NCBI GenBank assembly: GCA_048881705.1
Contig: JBHLSH010000037.1
Location: 1-35,375 of the forward strand
DNA from: Candidatus Heimdallarchaeota archaeon
GTDB lineage: Archaea > Asgardarchaeota > Heimdallarchaeia > Hodarchaeales > Hodarchaeaceae
DNA length: 35,375 nucleotides
Direction: 5' to 3'
Both the position numbers and the translations under genes were made by a program. The notes beneath the pieces were generated by a model. It ran no database searches, was not told the DNA's origin, and saw only the letters and a program-made list of their open reading frames with translations. Positions 1 through 10,109 of this stretch are shown piece after piece. Each line of letters begins with the position of its first letter. The stretch's first letter is position 1.

Positions 1-1140
1 GAAGACATTTCATGCGATGGAGTAGATATCCCAGTTTATATTTGGCATAGAAAGTTCGAAAGTATCCAGACAAATGTTAAATTTGAAAATGAAGAGGATC
101 TCAACGCATTTATCATCAAACTTGCTCAAAGGTCAGGACGTCACATTAGTGTTGCTCGACCGCTCCTCGATGCGGCCCTCCCTGACGGGAGCCGCCTTCA
201 GCTCACGTATGGAAGAGAGGTTACGCAGCGTGGGAGTACATTTACCATTCGAAAGTTCCGCTCGGATCCCTTAACTATTACTGATATGGTAACCTTTAAC
301 ACCATCGATTTTGATCTAGCCGCTTTTCTTTGGTATGCATTGGAGAATAGAAATTCTGTCGTTATTGCGGGTGGTACTGCTGCAGGAAAAACCTCGTTAC
401 TCAACAGTTTAGCCATGTTTATTAGAACGGGAATGAAGATCGTGTCAATCGAAGATACTGCCGAGCTGCACATTCCCCATGAGAACTGGATACCAGCAGT
501 AGCTAGAGAAGGATACGGAGGTCGGGAGGCAGATGGTAGTAGACGCGGAGAAGTATCCATGTACGATCTTCTCCGTGCAGCCTTAAGGCAACGGCCTGAT
601 TATCTATTCGTAGGAGAAGTGCGAGGAGCAGAAGCTTACAACCTCTTTCAGGCGATGGCCACGGGTCATACAGGCATGGGTACGATACATGGAGATAGCG
701 TCTCTGGTACCATTCGACGACTTGAAAATGAGCCAATGAACATTCCCAGAACTCTTATTCAGACATTAAACTTGCTTGTGGTTCTTCGAAAGGTACGTCG
801 GGGAGACAAACAGGTAAGGCGGATTGTCGAGTGCACCGAAATTGTGGGAATAGATCCAGTAACCACTGAACTAATAACCAACAAAGTTTTTGGTTGGAAC
901 GCTCGTGAAGATACATTCACAAACTATGGGCGTTCATATACATTAGAAGGTATTCAGGAAGGGCAAGGATTGACCGAGGCTCAAGTATTTGATGAACTGG
1001 AGCGTCGAAAGACGGTAATACGTTGGATGGTTAAGAAAAAATTGGCCCACTTTTCTCAAGTGGCCGAAGTGGTAACAAGCTATTATCAAAGTCCCCTAGA
1101 GACAGTTGAGCGAGCAAAACGTGAACTAAAAGCAATTTAA
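1..1140 (+). CDS. Type II/IV secretion (type IV pilus) assembly ATPase, VirB11/TadA/FlaI family; 5'-partial
   Basis: Frame 1 is open from base 1 (EDISCDG...LPDGSRLQLT...GSTFTIRKF) into the track ORF at 286. Walker A GGTAAGKT, Asp box SIEDTAEL, Walker B LRQRPDYLFVGEVRG, His box TGHTGMGTIH. Confidence 0.95.
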   Translation, partial: EDISCDGVDIPVYIWHRKFESIQTNVKFENEEDLNAFIIKLAQRSGRHISVARPLLDAALPDGSRLQLTYGREVTQRGSTFTIRKFRSDPLTITDMVTFNTIDFDLAAFLWYALENRNSVVIAGGTAAGKTSLLNSLAMFIRTGMKIVSIEDTAELHIPHENWIPAVAREGYGGREADGSRRGEVSMYDLLRAALRQRPDYLFVGEVRGAEAYNLFQAMATGHTGMGTIHGDSVSGTIRRLENEPMNIPRTLIQTLNLLVVLRKVRRGDKQVRRIVECTEIVGIDPVTTELITNKVFGWNAREDTFTNYGRSYTLEGIQEGQGLTEAQVFDELERRKTVIRWMVKKKLAHFSQVAEVVTSYYQSPLETVERAKRELKAI

Positions 1141-1166
1141 AGATTGATAATATTCGGTGGTTCTCT

Positions 1167-2054
1167 GTGAGTAAAGTTATTCGCCGAGTTGGCTATTTGA
1201 GGTTTGGCAGATATTTGGAACCTTGGATCGAACAAGGCCGCTTTGAACGCTTGGGTACAAGTCTCAAGAAAGCTGGAATGGACATTTCTGTTCGGTCATA
1301 CTTAGGAACCGCAATATTCAGCTCAATACTCGTAGGATTCCTAGCCATGGTTTTTTCGATTGTTGGAGGATTAACCTTTCTAGGATCCGATCTGCTTCCC
1401 TTTGTTACCATAATTGGACTGATACTCGGTGGTCTAATTGGACTACTGACATATTTTCCTTTCTTGTATTGGCCAGCAATGCGAGCTCAGGATCGAAAAA
1501 TCCTTTTAGATGCAGGACTTACTTCTACAGCTTCCTATCTCTCCGCTATGTCATCGAGTGGGGTTCCCCCTGACCGATTGTTCTATTCTCTGGCAGGTGA
1601 GGAATCAGTGGCCCCTGAGATTTCTAAGGAAAGTAAACGGATCACACGTGACATAGAGATCTTTGGATATGATATACTTAAGGCACTACGAACTGCAAGT
1701 GACCGATCGCCGAGCGAACGATTTTCTAAATTCCTAGATGGTATCTCGGCAACGATCACAAGTGGCGGAGACTTAACATTCTATCTTGCTGCCGAAACTA
1801 AAACCCACATGAAACTTAAAGAAGAAGAGACCAAGGAATTTATTGAGCAATTGGGGGTTCTAGCAGAGATCTTCATGATTCTAGGCGTTGTTGCTCCGCT
1901 CTTCTTTGTAGTCATTCTAGCTATTCTTGCCGTAATATCCCCAGATGCCACTCAATTGGGGACAGCTGTCATGTTATTATTGACCTACTTCCTTATGCCG
2001 CTCATGTTGTCAATTATGATTCTGTTGGTTACAACAGCTTCAAGAGAAATCTAA
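1167..2054 (+). CDS. Type IV pilus membrane platform protein (TadB/TadC, T2SS-F family) 1
   Basis: GTG start with GGTGG upstream. Two N-terminal TM helices, T2SSF-like core (YLSAMSSSGVP...ATITSGGDLTFYL), two C-terminal TM helices. Directly follows the ATPase. Confidence 0.88.
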   Translation: MSKVIRRVGYLRFGRYLEPWIEQGRFERLGTSLKKAGMDISVRSYLGTAIFSSILVGFLAMVFSIVGGLTFLGSDLLPFVTIIGLILGGLIGLLTYFPFLYWPAMRAQDRKILLDAGLTSTASYLSAMSSSGVPPDRLFYSLAGEESVAPEISKESKRITRDIEIFGYDILKALRTASDRSPSERFSKFLDGISATITSGGDLTFYLAAETKTHMKLKEEETKEFIEQLGVLAEIFMILGVVAPLFFVVILAILAVISPDATQLGTAVMLLLTYFLMPLMLSIMILLVTTASREI

Positions 2055-2073
2055 ACAAATCGGAGGATATCGC

Positions 2074-3051
2074 ATGGGAAAGTTAACCGAAAAACGTGAA
2101 CAAAGAATCTGGATTATTTCTGGCATCCTCTTCATAATTATATCAATTATTGTTCTTATCGGTTTTTATGTTCCCGTTTTAGAGCATATTGCATCCGTTT
2201 CAATGCCCTCACCAACGGATCCCCCCATTCCTTCGGGGGAAACTCACCCCTTTCTTAGATCCATTAGCGAAATAATCCGAGATCCTGTCCTCAATTTCTT
2301 TGACATTATTGATGCAACAATAGTTATGATTTTTGCACTGATTTTGGTCCCCGCTTGGGCCTATACCTCCGACAGAAGATGGCGTGACGATATTGACGAC
2401 CACATTCCTTCTTTGTTGAGAGAAATCTCGGATGCTCAAAAGACAGGCCTCCCGCTTCCTCGCGCCATCATGGAGGCATCCAAACATCAGTATGGATCGC
2501 TAACTCCCGAACTGAAGAAAATGGCGTCCAAAATCAGCTGGGGGATTCCTTTCAGCAATACTTTGCGTGGATTAACTGAGCATGCTGACACTCCCCTCAT
2601 GAAACGAACTTCTTTATTGATTTTGGAGGCAGAACGTTCAGGTGGTGCGATTGAGGAAGTGTTTGAATCTGCTCATACCCACGTTTCTGAAATCCTGGGA
2701 TTAAAACGTGAGCGACTGGGGGCAATGAAACCCTATACTTGGATTATTTATGCCAGTTTTGTTGTGTTTTCGATTGTTATGATTATCCTGTTGGTTTCTT
2801 TCTTTCAGACGTTGGCAACCCAGATTGTTTCCGCGGTTGCCGAGGGTCAACGTCCGACAGCTGGATTGCCATTTAATTTAGCCGGTCTTCAGCTCGTGTT
2901 TTTTCACCTGATGGTCATTGAGGCAGTATTTTCAGGTTTGATTGCAGGAAAAATGGGGGAAGGAGATGCAAAAATCGGCCTCAGACATTCGTGTTTCCTA
3001 TTGGCGGCCTGCTATATTATCTTCAAAGGATCAATTATATTCTTGGGTTAA
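2074..3051 (+). CDS. Type IV pilus membrane platform protein (TadC/FlaJ-like) 2
   Basis: T2SSF core (IPSLLREISDAQKTGLPLPRAI...EAERSGGAIEEV) and the typical archaeal C-terminal FSGLIAGKMGEG...GLRHS. GGAGG upstream. Confidence 0.9.
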   Translation: MGKLTEKREQRIWIISGILFIIISIIVLIGFYVPVLEHIASVSMPSPTDPPIPSGETHPFLRSISEIIRDPVLNFFDIIDATIVMIFALILVPAWAYTSDRRWRDDIDDHIPSLLREISDAQKTGLPLPRAIMEASKHQYGSLTPELKKMASKISWGIPFSNTLRGLTEHADTPLMKRTSLLILEAERSGGAIEEVFESAHTHVSEILGLKRERLGAMKPYTWIIYASFVVFSIVMIILLVSFFQTLATQIVSAVAEGQRPTAGLPFNLAGLQLVFFHLMVIEAVFSGLIAGKMGEGDAKIGLRHSCFLLAACYIIFKGSIIFLG

Positions 3052-3073
3052 ATCTGACTCTGTGTGATGTAGA

Positions 3074-3526
3074 ATGGGTAAAGAAGAAAAAATGTTAGAA
3101 GAATTGCTTACAAAAGTGAGCCTGCTAGAGGATAAAATCCAGAATATGGAGTTTTTGCTTGTCCAAGGGATGGGAGCAGGAACAATGGATCCAAGTAAGC
3201 TCTCCTCGATCACTGGAAGTCCTGTTTCTGCTCCTGTTGAGGTCGACCTCGCCCCGCTTGAGGGAAGGATTTCCCAAATCGAAATTTTGGTAAACCAGAT
3301 TGTTACCAAGGTTGACAAACTGTCCGAATTGACCGCACAGCTTAGTAGTGGAAAGGCACAGAAAGCAGATGAATTGATCGGTCAGGCCACAAGTTTGTTG
3401 GAAAAAGGGTTACAGTTAACCGAGCTGGAAACAACGCTTCTGGAGTTTAAGGATCGGGTGGAGGAAGTCATAATTCAGCTTGAGGTTTCCAATATCGGTG
3501 CATCTGAAGCTGAAGATTCCGTATAG
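3074..3526 (+). CDS. Hypothetical soluble coiled-coil protein in the pilus operon
   Basis: 150 aa, heptad-like L/I/E/K-rich helices with a G/S/P linker, no TM segment. Starts 22 nt after the tadC-like gene. Confidence 0.7.
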   Translation: MGKEEKMLEELLTKVSLLEDKIQNMEFLLVQGMGAGTMDPSKLSSITGSPVSAPVEVDLAPLEGRISQIEILVNQIVTKVDKLSELTAQLSSGKAQKADELIGQATSLLEKGLQLTELETTLLEFKDRVEEVIIQLEVSNIGASEAEDSV

Positions 3527-3578
3527 AAATCGGGTTTTTATTAGAAAATTGTAAATTAGTTGCTAAACGTGCATTATA

Positions 3579-4760
3579 ATGGGATACCATGGACGTTTCA
3601 AACGTAGAAGAGCACAAATACGGGCAGTAGACTTCATCGTGAGTCTCCTACTCTTCATGCTCATGTTATCACAACTAATCCTAATTATTGTCACTATTCA
3701 AGCTGGAATTCAAGTCTCCACTTCAAAAGGAATAACTGCAGAAGAAATCGACGTTTTTGCCCGTTCAATCTTACTGGAAGAGGGTGAACCGGGTTGGGGA
3801 TATCGACAAATACTTCCTGCCACCTTTGGATTGGGTAGCGATATTTCCACCGTTTCTTTGACTTTAGATCCAGCAAAAATAGCCAGACTGGTTACAGGAA
3901 CAGATTTTCCAGTCTTTCAAATATCTGGATACAGTACGTTCGATTATACAGCACTAAAGGAGGCCATGCATCTCCCTTCAGGAAGAAACTTCCAGCTTGC
4001 CCTTCTACCTACTCTTGAAACCTCTGTCGAAGTTGCAGTCTTAAACATTAATAACAATACAAATATTATTACTGTAGAAACCTGGAATGCTCGCGCATCT
4101 CCGATATCTTCCGCAAAAGCCTATTTTTTTGTAGTTGACTTTACGACTGGGACGATCCATTCCTTAGGGGTCTCCATAACTGATACAACAGGGCAGGCAT
4201 CCAAGAATTACTTGATACCTAATGCAGGTATTCCTGATGCAGAGCACATGGTTCTAAGTATTGTAGAAAAAGGGGCCCTTTGGGGTATGAACTGGGCCTA
4301 TATTGATCCAAATCCTGCATTCAGTCAATCGGTAATAGGAACAGCCTCTTCGAGCACCGTGTGGGGTGGAGGTATAAACTCTACGGCTTTATTGGCTTCT
4401 GATCAAGTCATAGAAACCCCAGATCAGCATTATATTTCTATCCTTTATCGGAACACAGTTGGAGGGTTTTCAAATACCACATTGGATTTATCAAGCAGTA
4501 TAAGCGGGAACGCAACTATTCCTATTCCAACTAATGGACTTGTAATTGTTTTTAGTATATCCCAAATCGGGGATACGTATGAGGTGGCAATAGGCTCCTA
4601 TCCAACGATTTTGGATCGTACTCAGACGACAGGTGTGTTTTACGATGTATTCGGAGCACAAGAGGATGAGTCTTCGGCAGAATCTCAACTTTCTAGGACA
4701 TATCCGGTTATAGTCCGAAATTTATTGATGAAATGTACAATTACGCTTTGGAGCGAGTAA
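3579..4760 (+). CDS. Large pilin-like/adhesin protein with class III-type signal peptide
   Basis: MGYHGRFKRRRA|QIRAVDF followed by a ~20 aa hydrophobic helix. S/T/G-rich beta-type ectodomain with 4 N-x-S/T sequons. Confidence 0.75.
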   Translation: MGYHGRFKRRRAQIRAVDFIVSLLLFMLMLSQLILIIVTIQAGIQVSTSKGITAEEIDVFARSILLEEGEPGWGYRQILPATFGLGSDISTVSLTLDPAKIARLVTGTDFPVFQISGYSTFDYTALKEAMHLPSGRNFQLALLPTLETSVEVAVLNINNNTNIITVETWNARASPISSAKAYFFVVDFTTGTIHSLGVSITDTTGQASKNYLIPNAGIPDAEHMVLSIVEKGALWGMNWAYIDPNPAFSQSVIGTASSSTVWGGGINSTALLASDQVIETPDQHYISILYRNTVGGFSNTTLDLSSSISGNATIPIPTNGLVIVFSISQIGDTYEVAIGSYPTILDRTQTTGVFYDVFGAQEDESSAESQLSRTYPVIVRNLLMKCTITLWSE

Positions 4761-4763
4761 AAA

Positions 4764-5279
4764 GTGCAAACCACCAAGCGAAGAAGTGCCCGCCGTGGAC
4801 AACTCCAAATTGCAGAAACGCTCATCGCAGTTTCACTCATGTTGGTACTTGCTCTTCTACTCATTAACTCCGCAGAACGACTTGTACAACAATCAGAAGA
4901 TACATCAAGCCTAGATCGTATGGCAACGGATATCCTAACCACTGCAGATGAAGCGGGCATTTTGAGGCCTGTAATTTACCTCTATAATGATACTAGCCTC
5001 ATCACCGAATATGCAAATTACCGGAATCTGTTAGATGATTTTATTGCCGCCATACTTCCCGTAAAGACGGGTTATGCCCTTTTGTCTCATGTGGTTTTAA
5101 ATGGCACAATGGATCCAAACTATGTTGTGCATATCGGATCAGGAAGTGAGATCGGATCCCTAACGGAGGGGGGAAATAGTGTGACAGCCAATTACTTTCT
5201 CAGTTCATTCACCTCTGCTGCTCACGGCCAATTTCGAGATCAATTTGTCGTGAGGCTTTATTTATGGGAGAAGATCTAA
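4764..5279 (+). CDS. Pilin-like protein with class III-type signal peptide
   Basis: GTG start 3 nt after the previous stop. MQTTKRRSARRG|QLQIAETLIAVSLMLVLALLLI. 2 sequons. Confidence 0.78.
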   Translation: MQTTKRRSARRGQLQIAETLIAVSLMLVLALLLINSAERLVQQSEDTSSLDRMATDILTTADEAGILRPVIYLYNDTSLITEYANYRNLLDDFIAAILPVKTGYALLSHVVLNGTMDPNYVVHIGSGSEIGSLTEGGNSVTANYFLSSFTSAAHGQFRDQFVVRLYLWEKI

Positions 5280-5280
5280 A

Positions 5281-5997
5281 ATGACTTTGCCTAAAGTGCA
5301 CCATTTTGGGAACAGAAATGCACAAATGTTTATTTTGGCAACTATGTTGATAGCCATTTATGTTATTGCTATGACGATGGTTTTGGTGAATTATGGAGGT
5401 ACCCGGATTGCAGTGGATCGTGAAGGTCTTGTCGAACCATATAATGATGTTAAACGCGAGCTGCAACAGTTCTTAGAACTTACACTTGCAGATTATACCA
5501 TGGATGGAAGCGTTACAACCAATGATTCCGCAATGGCGGAAATTGAGGCTTTTCTTTCTGATTTTGAAGATTTTAACAGCGTACAAGAAGTTTTCATTTC
5601 TCTCAGGCTTAACCCTATCACGTTTCGCCTTATAGGAAATCGACCTCCATTTTCAAATGTTTCAGACGACAAGGTATACGTTAGTGAGATATTTGCTGAG
5701 TTTGATTTAGAAATGAATTCCTTACAACCGTCAGCTAGCATCATAGAAACTTTTAACATATCGTTCATAGCCCGGGCGGAAGTTAAGGGTAACTCCGTTT
5801 ATGTACAACAGTCATCTGGTACACAATTTGTTTTTCAAGAAGCTTTTTCTATTTATATCTTAAACGGAACCACGCCAATATTCCCTGTCTCAAATTCGGA
5901 TCATTCGGGTGTTTATCTATTCCCCTCCGTCCCGAACCTAGATAACATTGGCCTTCTAAATGTAACATTCCCAAATGGTGTCCGAGTCTTCTCGTGA
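5281..5997 (+). CDS. Pilin-like protein with class III-type signal peptide
   Basis: Starts 1 nt after the previous stop. ...GNRNA|QMFILATMLIAIYVIAMTMVLV. 5 sequons (NDS, NVS, NIS, NGT, NVT). Confidence 0.72.
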   Translation: MTLPKVHHFGNRNAQMFILATMLIAIYVIAMTMVLVNYGGTRIAVDREGLVEPYNDVKRELQQFLELTLADYTMDGSVTTNDSAMAEIEAFLSDFEDFNSVQEVFISLRLNPITFRLIGNRPPFSNVSDDKVYVSEIFAEFDLEMNSLQPSASIIETFNISFIARAEVKGNSVYVQQSSGTQFVFQEAFSIYILNGTTPIFPVSNSDHSGVYLFPSVPNLDNIGLLNVTFPNGVRVFS

Positions 5998-8900
5998 AAC
6001 CCATGAATGTACTAGAGTTTGAGCAATATAGTTTAGGTTTAAGGAATAACATTAATGCTCAATTGACGATTGCTTCAAAGGCTAGGGCGAGAAAATATGA
6101 TCCGATGGATTCAGTTGAATCCCGCTTAACCTTTTCTTCAAAAGAAAACATTCTAGCTATCCTTAATATCCCAGGTCTCGACAAACATCTTCCTCAGTAT
6201 CTGTTTAGTCACGAAAATGCGCTACAGCTTGCTGCAGAGGTTGCCAAACAAATTGTTAACGAGCGATTTGTCAAACTACCTCCAAACCAATTAATCCGCC
6301 TTGCTATCCATAGCGCACTTGTCATTCTGAGTAGAGGTTTGATCAGTATTCCCCAAGAAATTATTCCGAAGATCTTTATTTCAAACAGGACAAATCATCT
6401 CACCCTCTTTTTTAGTAATACTGTGCGATACGTTCGAGGAGATATAATAGGCCTGGTCATTCTCACTGCCGATTATATTAGGAAACTTCTGCATATCGAG
6501 AGATTTCGACCATCTCCAGCCTTGGTTAGCCGATATATTGAGGAAATGGAGTTATTTCTAACGCTGATAGATCGGTCGCAAGACTTGCGTAGGGATCTTG
6601 TAGAGACCCTAATCCAAAGTATTGGGGTTGAGATTACTGGAGAACCATCGGAACGGATCGAAGTTCGAAGATATAGAAATTTACCCAATATCCACAATCA
6701 ATTACGCATGGGAATGTGTGTCACATTAGAAAAAATTATGGATAATATCAACGTCATCGCTGAACAACGTACCACGGCCGAATTGCTGGAATGGGAATGG
6801 CTTAAACCTCATGTAACCGAAAAACGGGAAAAACTATCCTTTTCATCTAGGGATGCCAGGGGTACAAGGCCGTTACTTTCTAGATCGAAGACTCCTGGTG
6901 GATTCCGGCTTAGATATGGAATAGCCCGTAATACTGGACAGGGCGCCGTAGGGATTCATCCAGCAACTATGCATTTCTTAGAGCTACTTTCACCTGGAAC
7001 AAATGTTATTATTGATGTTATGGATCGACCAATCACCTTATTTCCAGTATCTTCATTACTTGGTCCGTATATAGAACTTAGGGATGGTTCCACAATTCGA
7101 ATAGAATCTGATACGGATTTTCGTGATTTGAAGGATAAGATCAAGCTAATCTGGGAGATGGGAGACCTACTTCTCTCACCCGACGATATTCCTGCAACTG
7201 AAACTATTGAGCAGGCAAGCTGGACCGAAGAATGGTGGAGTCAAGAAGTTTATGCCGTCATGAATACACAAGCCAGAGGATCGGAGTTTTTGGCAGCAAA
7301 ACTAGCCATTCCAGTAGAAATGTTGAAACGGTATCTTGAGTCTCCCATATTAAATCCACCTCCTAAAGAGGTTGCTGTAGGCCTATCCAGATTAACTAAT
7401 ACCCCTCTTCACCCTTACTACTCCTTCAACTGGAATGAAATCGCTATTGGAAACCTTGAAAAACTTCTTCTACTCATCAATAAGTCGAACAGCGATTTAA
7501 TTCCGTACGATACAGATATGATTAAAATTTTAAGTAAACTTGGAGTTCCCTTTACAATTGAAGACGATAAACTCCGTAGTCCACGGTTTGACCTGTTTGT
7601 CCAAGCCCTCAGTGGAAAAAAGCAAGAACTAACTCAGATTCTACTAAAATCGCCAGAGCCGCCAACTATTGAAGAAATACTTTCCCAGCTAATCGGCATT
7701 CAGATAAAATCTCTGTGCCACCGCAGAATTGGTTTAAAGCTTCTTCGAGTAGAGAAAGCAGAACTGAGACATCTTAACCCGCCAGCTCATGTTTTATTTC
7801 CAATTGGATCGTACGGGGGAACTCAGAAAGATATTTTAAAGGCGGCAAATGAATCAACGATAAACGTACGCCTCGCAGAGCGGTACTGCGCCTCGTGCGA
7901 GATATCTACTTTCCAAGTATTCTGTCCTCAATGCGATGAACAGACAGATCAACATTACGTATGCAGGCAAGGACATATCTCCGCTGAAAGAAACTGCACC
8001 ACTTGCGGGCAATATGCATTTCCTTCTCATTACAAACCTATCCATCTCGCAACGCAACTGGAATCGGCGTTTCAACTGACTGGAGAAGTTAAAGTAGATA
8101 AAATTAAGGGAGTGGCTTCTCTTAATAGTCGCAACCATATTCCTGAACATCTAGCGAAAGGGATATTAAGAGCTAAATACGATCTTCTTGTCTATAAAGA
8201 TGGTACTTCGAGATTTGAAATGACTAATGCCCCTTTGACCCATTTTACGCCAAAGGAAATTAATACGTCCATTTCAGATCTAAAACTACTCGGATATTCG
8301 CATGATGTGTATGGAGAAGATCTAACAGATGAAGACCAGATGGTTGAACTTTTCCCTTTTGATGTTATCATTAATCAGTCCGCGGGTGATTTTCTAATAA
8401 AGCAAACAAAGCTCGTCGATGATGAGCTGTCCTCTCTATATAGTCTCCCCCGCTACTATCGACGTAAAACCCTAGAAACCCTGGTCGGTACGATTATTGT
8501 GGGGCTTTCTCCATTTTCTGCAATAGCAGTGGTTGGGAGGGTAATTGGATACATCAAACACGTAAATGTGCTTCTGGCTCATCCACTCTGGCATAACTTA
8601 AAGACTCGCAATTGCAATGGAGATGTTGACTCCATTACTCTTCTTCTCGATGTACTCTTAAATTTCTCTACAGAATTCTACCCTACTCAACGGGGAGGAA
8701 GCATGGATATCCCCATGATCGTCCATTTTCCAGAAAGCTGGGAGGGGTTATCCCTAGCTAGCAAATATACCTCTGTTCCCTTGAATCTCCCTTATTATAG
8801 ATCATTGAACGAAAATCCACTCAGAGAGGACCTTATGACATACGAACAATCCTATCTGGCCCCTTCTGTACCCAAAATCCACACAATAGATAATTATTCG

Positions 8901-9329
8901 TCTTTTCGCTTGGAAAACCAGTTTAAAACCAAGACGATCATTTCCAAGGTTGAATCCATCCTTAAGATCCTTCCACGGATACGGGGAATCGAAGAAAGTG
9001 ATTTCGTTGATGGAATCCTCCAGAATGACTTCATGATTAAAACGTCAAACTCGATGAATCGTTTTTTTCTTCAACCCTTCCGTTGTAAAAGGTGTAAAAC
9101 GGTATTTCGACGCATTCCTCTTTCCTCATTGTGTTCCGTTTGTCACAGCGATTTAATCAGTTTATCATTATCGGCAGGATGGGTAGTTCGATTATTACAT
9201 ATCATAGAGCAGCTGCAAGAAACATATAATACTGAAATATCGACATATTCCAAGGCTTGGATAAGACTGGTGAATCTACGAAAGCAAATGCTGTTTGACC
9301 GAGGCCCACGGCCCACCAGACTTATCTGA
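5994..9329 (+). CDS. polC: DNA polymerase D large subunit (DP2) homolog, strongly diverged, predicted catalytically inactive
   Basis: Colinear with DP2 over 1111 aa: KAR..DP N-terminus, GVEITGEP, GGFRLRYG, EEWW, HVLFPIG, Zn-finger Cys pairs, KGILRAK..KDGT.RF, LLNFS..RGG.MD, C-terminal FRCKRC..CSVC. The catalytic motif reads RNCNGDVD (8607-8630) instead of RNCDGDED. GTG overlaps the upstream TGA; alternative ATG at 6003. Confidence 0.93.
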   Translation: MKPMNVLEFEQYSLGLRNNINAQLTIASKARARKYDPMDSVESRLTFSSKENILAILNIPGLDKHLPQYLFSHENALQLAAEVAKQIVNERFVKLPPNQLIRLAIHSALVILSRGLISIPQEIIPKIFISNRTNHLTLFFSNTVRYVRGDIIGLVILTADYIRKLLHIERFRPSPALVSRYIEEMELFLTLIDRSQDLRRDLVETLIQSIGVEITGEPSERIEVRRYRNLPNIHNQLRMGMCVTLEKIMDNINVIAEQRTTAELLEWEWLKPHVTEKREKLSFSSRDARGTRPLLSRSKTPGGFRLRYGIARNTGQGAVGIHPATMHFLELLSPGTNVIIDVMDRPITLFPVSSLLGPYIELRDGSTIRIESDTDFRDLKDKIKLIWEMGDLLLSPDDIPATETIEQASWTEEWWSQEVYAVMNTQARGSEFLAAKLAIPVEMLKRYLESPILNPPPKEVAVGLSRLTNTPLHPYYSFNWNEIAIGNLEKLLLLINKSNSDLIPYDTDMIKILSKLGVPFTIEDDKLRSPRFDLFVQALSGKKQELTQILLKSPEPPTIEEILSQLIGIQIKSLCHRRIGLKLLRVEKAELRHLNPPAHVLFPIGSYGGTQKDILKAANESTINVRLAERYCASCEISTFQVFCPQCDEQTDQHYVCRQGHISAERNCTTCGQYAFPSHYKPIHLATQLESAFQLTGEVKVDKIKGVASLNSRNHIPEHLAKGILRAKYDLLVYKDGTSRFEMTNAPLTHFTPKEINTSISDLKLLGYSHDVYGEDLTDEDQMVELFPFDVIINQSAGDFLIKQTKLVDDELSSLYSLPRYYRRKTLETLVGTIIVGLSPFSAIAVVGRVIGYIKHVNVLLAHPLWHNLKTRNCNGDVDSITLLLDVLLNFSTEFYPTQRGGSMDIPMIVHFPESWEGLSLASKYTSVPLNLPYYRSLNENPLREDLMTYEQSYLAPSVPKIHTIDNYSSFRLENQFKTKTIISKVESILKILPRIRGIEESDFVDGILQNDFMIKTSNSMNRFFLQPFRCKRCKTVFRRIPLSSLCSVCHSDLISLSLSAGWVVRLLHIIEQLQETYNTEISTYSKAWIRLVNLRKQMLFDRGPRPTRLI

Positions 9330-9443: not shown

Positions 9444-10109
9444 TTGAATCCGAGTAATGGGTTAGACGAAAGCGAGACACTGAGGTCAAGCAATATAGGT
9501 GAAAGCGAGATTCGACTTAGTACTCTATTAACTTCTCTAACCAAGGAAATTGTTACAATGCCCGCTAATCGACCAGTCGCTGAAGCGGCAAAACTGATGG
9601 TGGATCATAAGATTGGTTCTGTTCTTCTAAAAGCTGAAGAGGGGGAGAACGGAGACATCATAGGAATCATAACGAAGGGAGACATCATTACTCGGGTGGT
9701 GGGACGAGGACTCGATCCAGGAATAATAATAGCCGATGATGTTATGTCATCACCAGTTCATATCGTTTCTGAAGATGAAACATTGGAAAACACCATGCTT
9801 CTTATGAGTCAATATGATATAGAACGAATGCTTGTTGTAGACGAGGAGGACCGCCCTCTTGCTATTGTTTCTACAAATGATATCCTAAGATTCTCTCCGG
9901 GCCTCCTTCGGATCCGTCGTGAACGACTTCTTATTGAATCTCTTCCCGATGATGTGAACCATACAAAAACTCTCTTTAAAGGATTCTGTGATGATTGTGG
10001 GAACTATTCTGAGGAATTATCGTCCATGAGCGGATATACTCTATGTCCCGATTGTCTCCTTGGCTCTCCGATGGATGATGATCACATCACGGACGATGAC
10101 ATAATGTGA
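9444..10109 (+). CDS. CBS-pair protein with C-terminal CxxC...CxxC zinc ribbon
   Basis: Two CBS repeats (EAAKLMVDHKIGS..GIITKGDI; DDVMSSPV..AIVSTNDIL), then GFCDDCGNY...LCPDC. TTG start uncertain. Confidence 0.85.
   Translation: MNPSNGLDESETLRSSNIGESEIRLSTLLTSLTKEIVTMPANRPVAEAAKLMVDHKIGSVLLKAEEGENGDIIGIITKGDIITRVVGRGLDPGIIIADDVMSSPVHIVSEDETLENTMLLMSQYDIERMLVVDEEDRPLAIVSTNDILRFSPGLLRIRRERLLIESLPDDVNHTKTLFKGFCDDCGNYSEELSSMSGYTLCPDCLLGSPMDDDHITDDDIM

Follow-up and report, generated by a model that had tools for sequence, protein, structure and literature searches.

The single DP2 of a Hodarchaeales Asgard archaeon: a DNA polymerase D large subunit kept under selection with a disrupted active site

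Most archaea are held to depend on DNA polymerase D (PolD) as their essential replicase, and eukaryotic polymerases have inherited parts of it, namely DP1 and the C-terminal part of DP2. The Pol2 subunit of eukaryotic Pol epsilon, according to what Tahirov et al. are said to have found in 2009, contains an inactivated C-terminal module of the family-B polymerase (PolB) type and works with the B-subunit Dpb2. An inactivated archaeal family, PolB2, was reportedly recognized by Rogozin et al. in 2008. The present case belongs to family D. It is a DP2-like open reading frame (ORF) at positions 5994–9329 (+) of a stretch of 35,375 nucleotides, referred to as the window, which is contig JBHLSH010000037.1 (assembly GCA_048881705.1, Candidatus Heimdallarchaeota archaeon; Asgardarchaeota, Heimdallarchaeia, Hodarchaeales). 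This single DP2 has probably lost catalysis and would be kept as a functional, non-catalytic partner of the small subunit DP1, with DNA synthesis probably left to family-B polymerases.

The closest precedent is the work of Kazlauskas et al. 2020 (NAR 48:10142, PMC7544198), in which a 'Heimdall_B3/LC3-like' group is stated to 'lack active DP2' (evidence in Fig. 7B and Suppl. Figs S15/S16). The same authors found that this group co-occurs with B10 PolBs, which are Pol-epsilon-N-like and have Zn-binding C-termini. They considered the DP2 of AB125 to be active and wrote that the DP1 of B3 'might still be active'. The window protein falls in the same clade, has the same active-site disruption and is accompanied by a Pol-epsilon-N-like PolB with a Zn-binding C-terminus. 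The core finding of an inactive DP2 is already published, from two metagenome-assembled genomes (MAGs) and in the form of one sentence with supplementary alignments. A first-pass annotation of the window, made from the sequence alone, had overstated its novelty. What is new here is the breadth of the phenomenon (38 full-length orthologues; two families), purifying selection on the gene, the stepwise decay of the active site to NGD and then to NG[VA]x, and an N450E substitution in DP1. The remodelling of the second zinc-binding motif (Zn-II), the loss of the PCNA-interacting protein (PIP) box and a conserved gene neighbourhood are new as well. In the literature searched, the 2020 paper is alone in mentioning an inactive DP2 for Heimdall or Hodarchaeales genomes, and later replisome surveys count the Hodarchaeal DP2 simply as 'present' (PMC12680538, PMC12770985).

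Three active-site motifs of PolD, termed a, s and b, were defined by Zatopek et al. 2020 (PMC7708050). (i) The a-motif reads (RR)N-x-D-G-D; in the cryogenic electron microscopy structure of Pyrococcus abyssi PolD, Mg2+-A has this Asn and the two Asp as ligands (PMC10721889). In 9degN PolD, either D964A or D966A abolishes synthesis; N962 tolerates D or partial loss (PMC7708050). (ii) The PHT of the s-motif is called invariant in PolD, and Tyr or Arg in place of its His (H931) kills activity (PMC7708050). (iii) Among the b-motif residues of the 9degN enzyme, K398 is critical in vitro, and K392 and R395 are dispensable in vitro (PMC7708050). Solved structures of canonical DP2 come from P. abyssi (6HMS, 6T8H) and Thermococcus kodakarensis (6KNB). 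The window protein shares with them a four-part architecture with two double-psi beta-barrels (DPBBs), the zinc-binding motifs Zn-I and Zn-III, and a C-terminal domain that is predicted to bind DP1 here as well. It departs from them by disrupted a- and s-motifs, a partial change in the b-motif, a remodelled Zn-II and the lack of a PIP box.

The ORF encodes 1111 amino acids from a GTG at 5994, the end coordinate including the stop codon. It had been described as intact and colinear with DP2, and both Pfam domains and structural homologues bear this out. Residues 8–1093 align colinearly with DP2 of P. abyssi (6hms_B; E 1.7e-154), and the DP2 fold can be taken as fixed because of this similarity to a solved DP2 (E 1e-154). 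Three Pfam domains match well above cut-off (E 1e-35 to 1e-77), all on the + strand: the N-terminal domain PF03833 (residues 12–272; 6027–6809), the central domain PF24844, which contains DPBB-1 (residues 287–663; 6852–7982), and the catalytic domain PF24846, or DPBB-2 (residues 699–911; 8088–8726). Equivalog models of NCBIfam score the protein below their cut-offs, with 745.7 bits against 1269 for NF003103 and 660.2 against 702.15 for TIGR00354.

The a-motif loop HPLWHNLKTRNCNGDVD lies at 8580–8630 (+) and contains K-T-R-N873-C-N875-G-D877-V-D879, where canonical DP2 has N/DCDGDED. When it is aligned with P. abyssi DP2, whose Mg triad is N954/D956/D958, the window protein has N873/N875/D877 at these positions. 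The first essential Asp has thus become Asn, encoded by the AAT codon at 8616–8618 exactly as the first-pass annotation had it, and the second Asp is kept. The RR preceding the motif reads TR, its first Arg being replaced by Thr. In the s-motif region (8502–8528, +), GLSPFSAIA stands for canonical GLAPHTS, so that the steric-gate His is Phe (F841) and the Thr is Ser. The b-motif loop, part of DPBB-1 (6996–7028, +), is GTNVIIDVMDR in alignment to P. abyssi, against canonical GTQLKTERPGK. Here K..R..K reads I..V..R: K386 of P. abyssi is replaced by I, R389 by V and K392 by R345. As the last position, the one critical in vitro, is conservatively changed to Arg, this motif is not decisive.

Other erosions listed beforehand are likewise real when measured against canonical and P. 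abyssi DP2. SNTVRYVRG stands in place of AGPIRSAGG inside the PF03833 domain (6414–6440, +), and the GTQxKxERPGK loop is the altered b-motif described above. RMGRPEK has become KLLRVEK, GLAPHTS(AG) has become GLSPFSA, and HP(Y/L)(F/W)HxAKRR (HPYFHAAKRR) has become HPLWHNLKTR. The segment EVDxEVHNxD had been called lost; it is diverged yet alignable, and not deleted. Retention of the zinc-finger cysteines, another of the early claims, holds in part. Zn-I and Zn-III each keep all four Cys, those of Zn-III being invariant across the clade. Zn-II has lost its second Cys in 38 of 38 members of the clade; a conserved His comes next and turns CxxC into Cx3H. Zn-I (CxxC...CxxC) and the remodelled Zn-II (Cx3H...CxxC) together span 7887–8006 (+). 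Zn-III (CxxC-x12-CxxC; 9084–9143, +) lies in the C-terminal domain, the predicted DP1-binding module. At the C-terminus (9303–9326, +) the protein ends in GPRPTRLI, and the canonical Q..L..F columns of the PIP box are absent, as had been stated. In a reference set of 71 canonical DP2, 274 columns are near-invariant (at least 97%), a term that applies to that set only, made up as it is of best matches to the window query. The clade keeps 138 of these columns and loses 93, and 33 of the lost columns are now fixed to a new residue.

These features are properties of a lineage. A search of 5.8 billion proteins yielded 38 full-length clade members with 44–100% identity to the window protein. The family is sharply bounded, with at least 44% identity within the clade and about 30–34% (at most 34%) to any canonical DP2, and the copies with CNGD form a conserved long-branch clade apart from canonical DP2, a point that the first-pass annotation had proposed to check. 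The tree was built with FastTree, which places the DP2 of B3_Heim (P0034, 46% identical) inside the clade with 99% Shimodaira–Hasegawa-like support; long-branch warnings attach to the sister-family sequence L073. Asn replaces the first Asp of the a-motif in 36 of the 38 members. The loop reads CNGD[IV]D in 24 and CNG[VA][STN]D in 12, the latter forming one monophyletic subclade, including B3_Heim, in which both Asp are lost. CSGNID and CDGDID occur once each. Canonical DP2 have CDGDED in 66 of 66 scorable sequences of the 71, the pattern matching no loop in the other five. The sequence with CDGDID, P0015, comes from a Logan contig of 6481 bp and is the only clade member with the first Asp. It adjoins P0004. 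Because it is deeply nested among CNGDID sequences, its loop is best taken from the tree as a single-base reversal or an assembly error, and not as the ancestral state.

Copy number follows the same pattern. No second DP2 was found in the window genome (G000; 91% complete) by protein and Pfam searches, which returned a 14-bit chance match on contig C15 only, so that the CNGD copy is the only DP2 found there. One orthologue each, with 46–93% identity, is present in 20 of the 21 other genomes of the genus-level group; the nearest assembled relative has a DP2 93% identical to that of the window species. In a second family of the same order DP2 is more eroded still, with ANGDID in one genome (L073, G023:C598) and no recognisable loop in another (L074, G022:C220). 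In other families of Heimdallarchaeia the loop is the canonical RRNCDGDED, and inteins are frequent. Record titles within the clade disagree: the relative with 93% identity (L035, JBHLRO010000015.1) bears the title 'Thorarchaeota', and the names Hodarchaeota, Heimdallarchaeota, Hermodarchaeota or Promethearchaeota appear in the titles of others. Many of the clade's DP2 orthologues at NCBI are annotated as 'hypothetical protein'. For annotation practice it is relevant that DP2 of this clade falls below NCBIfam cut-offs and mostly goes by a hypothetical label.

The gene is under strong purifying selection. The ratio of nonsynonymous to synonymous substitution rates (dN/dS) was estimated by the Nei–Gojobori method (NG86) for three pairs of genomes. 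It is 0.089 for G000–G001 (dS 0.36), 0.138 for G008–G003 (dS 0.64) and 0.105 for G010–G015 (dS 0.95), which makes a range of 0.09–0.14. Each of the four DP2 domains lies at 0.05–0.18, the N-terminal domain at 0.05 in the G000–G001 pair. DP1 in the same pairs is at 0.17–0.21, above DP2. Among the 38 clade members 238 columns are at least 97% conserved, and 83 invariant positions are specific to the clade: 30 in the N-terminal domain, 24 in the C-terminal domain, 23 in the central domain and 6 in the catalytic domain. With dN/dS near 0.09 and constraint on each of the four domains, the window DP2 reads as a working protein and not as a decaying gene. The pattern fits a stem branch on which change came in a burst, after which constraint returned and the interaction domains acquired new constraints.

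That the broken motif is an artefact of sequencing or assembly, or that the gene is decaying, is an account for which two observations can be cited. The window genome is a MAG of 3.96 Mb in 155 contigs with 7.5% estimated contamination, and the orthologue in genome G016 has an in-frame TGA. This account deserves almost no credence. Full-length, intact ORFs with the same substitutions recur in dozens of independent assemblies, dN/dS is about 0.1, and synteny fixes the contig firmly in its lineage. The a-motif census and dN/dS effectively refute a pseudogene or sequencing error, and the earlier argument that the change is not a single GAT-to-AAT misreading is upheld by the 36 of 38 orthologues with Asn. 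The G016 orthologue itself (L008, C1:2667766–2671068, –) comes from a single-contig assembly. Its TGA stands at residue 234 (QLRM*MCV), where the window protein has Gly, and its database record starts downstream of the TGA and is 868 aa long. The TGA may be an error of sequencing, or the protein may truly be truncated.

The partner subunit is present. One DP1 gene (P0002) lies at G000:C90:4880–6448 (–), in locus L005 at 1324–2895, adjoining orc1/cdc6. It keeps seven of eight P. abyssi nuclease active-site residues, namely D360, H362, D404, H451, H497, H560 and H562. The eighth, N450, is replaced by Glu (GEHD) in 18 of 18 genus genomes scored; GNHD is kept in the DP1 of two other Heimdallarchaeia families. 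In-frame TGA codons in three DP1 matches were considered as further anomalies and rejected, as they are natural stop codons. In the two sister-family genomes G022 and G023, which are 80–85% complete and very fragmented, DP1 was not found with P0002 or PF04042 as query. Together with the erosion of L073 and L074, this suggests from sequence that PolD may have decayed further in the sister family.

A structural model of the complex is consistent with retained binding. Residues 120–523 of DP1 and 950–1111 of DP2 were modelled together, each supplied as a clade alignment. The interaction prediction score from aligned errors (ipSAE) is 0.83, and the best control scores 0.00; among complexes already solved, 58 of 80 reach that mark, and among mismatched pairs 2 of 110 do. 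Three runs share at least 80% of contacts, and the partner has a predicted local distance difference test (pLDDT) value of 65–69. The model supports the view that the DP1 interface on the C-terminal domain of DP2 is preserved, with the qualification that homologous complexes have been solved and that the pass may reflect likeness only.

Family-B polymerases could take over synthesis. The window genome has four PolB loci. Those on contigs C2 (890-aa frame) and C28 (847-aa frame) have motifs A and C intact, and the fourth, on C49, was matched at motif A only. The remaining locus (L075, G000:C23:26443–31011, +) is Pol-epsilon-like, with a 1523-aa stop-to-stop frame containing an intact Exo I (FDIET), motif A (DVTSMYPS), motif B, ELDTDG and a C-terminal CSEC...CRIC (CxxC...CxxC). 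In several relatives the corresponding frame is 1900–2020 aa long and the match is split, which suggests that inteins may interrupt it. This PolB is present in 20 of 21 genus genomes and in both sister-family genomes, 22 of 23 of the order sampled. None of 17 genomes of the other Heimdallarchaeia families, which have canonical DP2, gave a match to it at E <= 1e-30. Its distribution thus coincides exactly with that of degenerate as against canonical DP2.

Loss of polymerase activity would follow by analogy with published mutagenesis of other PolDs. Several facts weigh against the reading of a non-catalytic DP2 that works with DP1. Members of the window subclade retain D877 and D879. The first Asp has changed to Asn, which is still able to ligate metal, rather than to Ala. 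The critical b-motif residue (9degN K398) is Arg, and the changed residues are those dispensable in vitro (K392, R395). The catalytic domain is among the most constrained (dN/dS 0.06–0.10), with 6 of 83 clade-specific positions, and retained catalytic activity of some kind would predict such constraint likewise. The nested orthologue P0015 reads CDGDID. The co-occurrence of PolB and degenerate DP2 is a single phylogenetic event and not a set of independent replicates. DP1 and DP2 are a textbook pair, and the pass of the model may reflect memorization of it.

The main rival is that DP2 is still a nucleotide polymerase with a variant site, N-x-N-G-D-x-D. With its steric gate altered, such an enzyme might have lower metal affinity, a preference for Mn2+ or changed substrate selectivity. 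Retention of D877 and D879 in the window subclade, the Arg of the b-motif, the strongly constrained catalytic domain, the CDGDID of P0015 and the tolerance of 9degN PolD at N962 for D or partial loss (PMC7708050) all speak for it. It is nonetheless unlikely. Asn occupies, in 36 of 38 members, the position equivalent to D964, whose change to Ala kills the enzyme. In the sister subclade, which is comparably constrained, both Asp are gone, so that catalysis cannot explain the constraint there. Phe stands for the His of PHT, a position at which bulky residues are incompatible with activity (PMC7708050). The PIP box is gone, and the scores of the NCBIfam DP2 equivalogs are under cut-off. The first-pass annotation had called the protein a pseudo-polymerase. 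That description stands in so far as the gene is pseudo-enzyme-like, selected and no error; catalytic death is a probable reading drawn from mutants of other PolDs, and the window protein still has D877 and an Arg in place of the b-motif Lys. The annotation's further idea, that such a gene might mark an intermediate in the loss of PolD catalysis towards eukaryotes, would be a hypothesis.

The preferred reading, a non-catalytic DP2 working with DP1, can be set out in steps. (i) DP2 without catalysis would still fold as DP2. (ii) It would still bind the small subunit DP1 through the C-terminal domain with Zn-III. (iii) DP1 would retain its Mre11-like nuclease site. (iv) The two would form a DP1-carrying module that binds DNA or the replisome. 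(v) DNA would be synthesized by family-B polymerases, notably the co-occurring Pol-epsilon-N-like PolB. (vi) DP2 would act as a structural element that partners DP1 and, probably, further proteins of the replisome. Binding of DP1 in vivo and a role of DP2 as scaffold or nuclease carrier are what we infer from the data above.

Two systems offer parallels. The likeness to eukaryotic Pol epsilon is one of logic only: a dead polymerase module and a subunit of the DP1 family stand beside an active epsilon-N-type PolB. The dead module here is a two-barrel DP2 on a separate polypeptide and not a PolB, and the nuclease ligands lost in eukaryotic B-subunits are kept in this DP1. Archaeal PolB2 is similar in being a widespread, conserved and apparently inactivated homologue of replicative polymerases, but it belongs to family B and occurs beside active paralogues, whereas here the family is D and the only DP2 is the degenerate one. 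In a two-hybrid assay the C-terminus of a Hodarchaeal Pol-epsilon-like PolB showed no interaction with DP1 (PMC12680538).

A more far-reaching version of the same idea is speculative and should be regarded as rather doubtful. The pair of DP1 and dead DP2 might be an essential, non-catalytic replisome organiser, which may link helicase, primase and the Pol-epsilon-like PolB, with DP1 possibly serving as a nuclease in trans. If true, eukaryotic Pol epsilon with its 'dead polymerase plus B-subunit' module would have an archaeal equivalent in this organiser, one that arose in a lineage often placed closest to eukaryotes. The position of DP2 at the end of a pilus-like operon would then be a separate, unexplained layer. 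Independently of this proposal, a whole order that is often regarded as nearest to eukaryotes has kept DP2 at full length although its active site is broken, and selection on it is stronger than on DP1. A function of DP2 would be separable from DNA synthesis, and the clade provides a natural system for finding it. The inactivation noted in 2020 deserves a place in models of the origin of eukaryotic polymerases.

The surroundings of the gene are conserved in their own right. Upstream, a co-directional cluster resembling type-IV-pilus or Tad systems occupies window positions 1–5997 (+) and is made up of one gene for a T2SSE-type ATPase, a pair of T2SSF genes and four small genes. The last upstream gene stops at 5997, five nucleotides before the DP2 ATG at 6003. 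Downstream of DP2 lie a CBS gene (9444–10109) and a convergent NFACT gene. The whole order, including CBS and NFACT, is kept in five genus genomes compared with long flanks, from both subclades. It was not seen beside the sister-family DP2 or the canonical DP2 of two other families.

One might suppose from this arrangement that dead DP2 was recruited to the upstream type-IV-pilus-like system, for example as a DNA-handling component, and serves there rather than in the replisome. The order of T2SSE ATPase, two T2SSF, four small genes, DP2 and CBS is kept in the five genomes with long flanks, the upstream gene and CBS match in all 17 genus genomes compared at 1.5-kb flanks, and the end of the upstream gene lies no more than a few bases from where DP2 begins. 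We consider such recruitment very improbable. The unrelated NFACT gene on the opposite strand is equally kept, which points to general synteny. The sister-family DP2, in which Asp has already become Asn, has no such neighbours on its short contigs. A complex of the PolD type is indicated by the retained DP1 and by the domain predicted to bind it. The neighbourhood is treated as genus-level synteny with possible co-transcription, and not as evidence of shared function, because an unrelated gene is co-conserved and the Asp-to-Asn change is older than the linkage.

Two smaller observations concern the same junction. The ATG at 6003 is the start in the window's own database record and in database orthologues and gives a protein of 1108 aa; it is more likely to be the DP2 start than the GTG at 5994. 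Three of the four small upstream proteins have a pilin-like N-terminus, basic and then hydrophobic.

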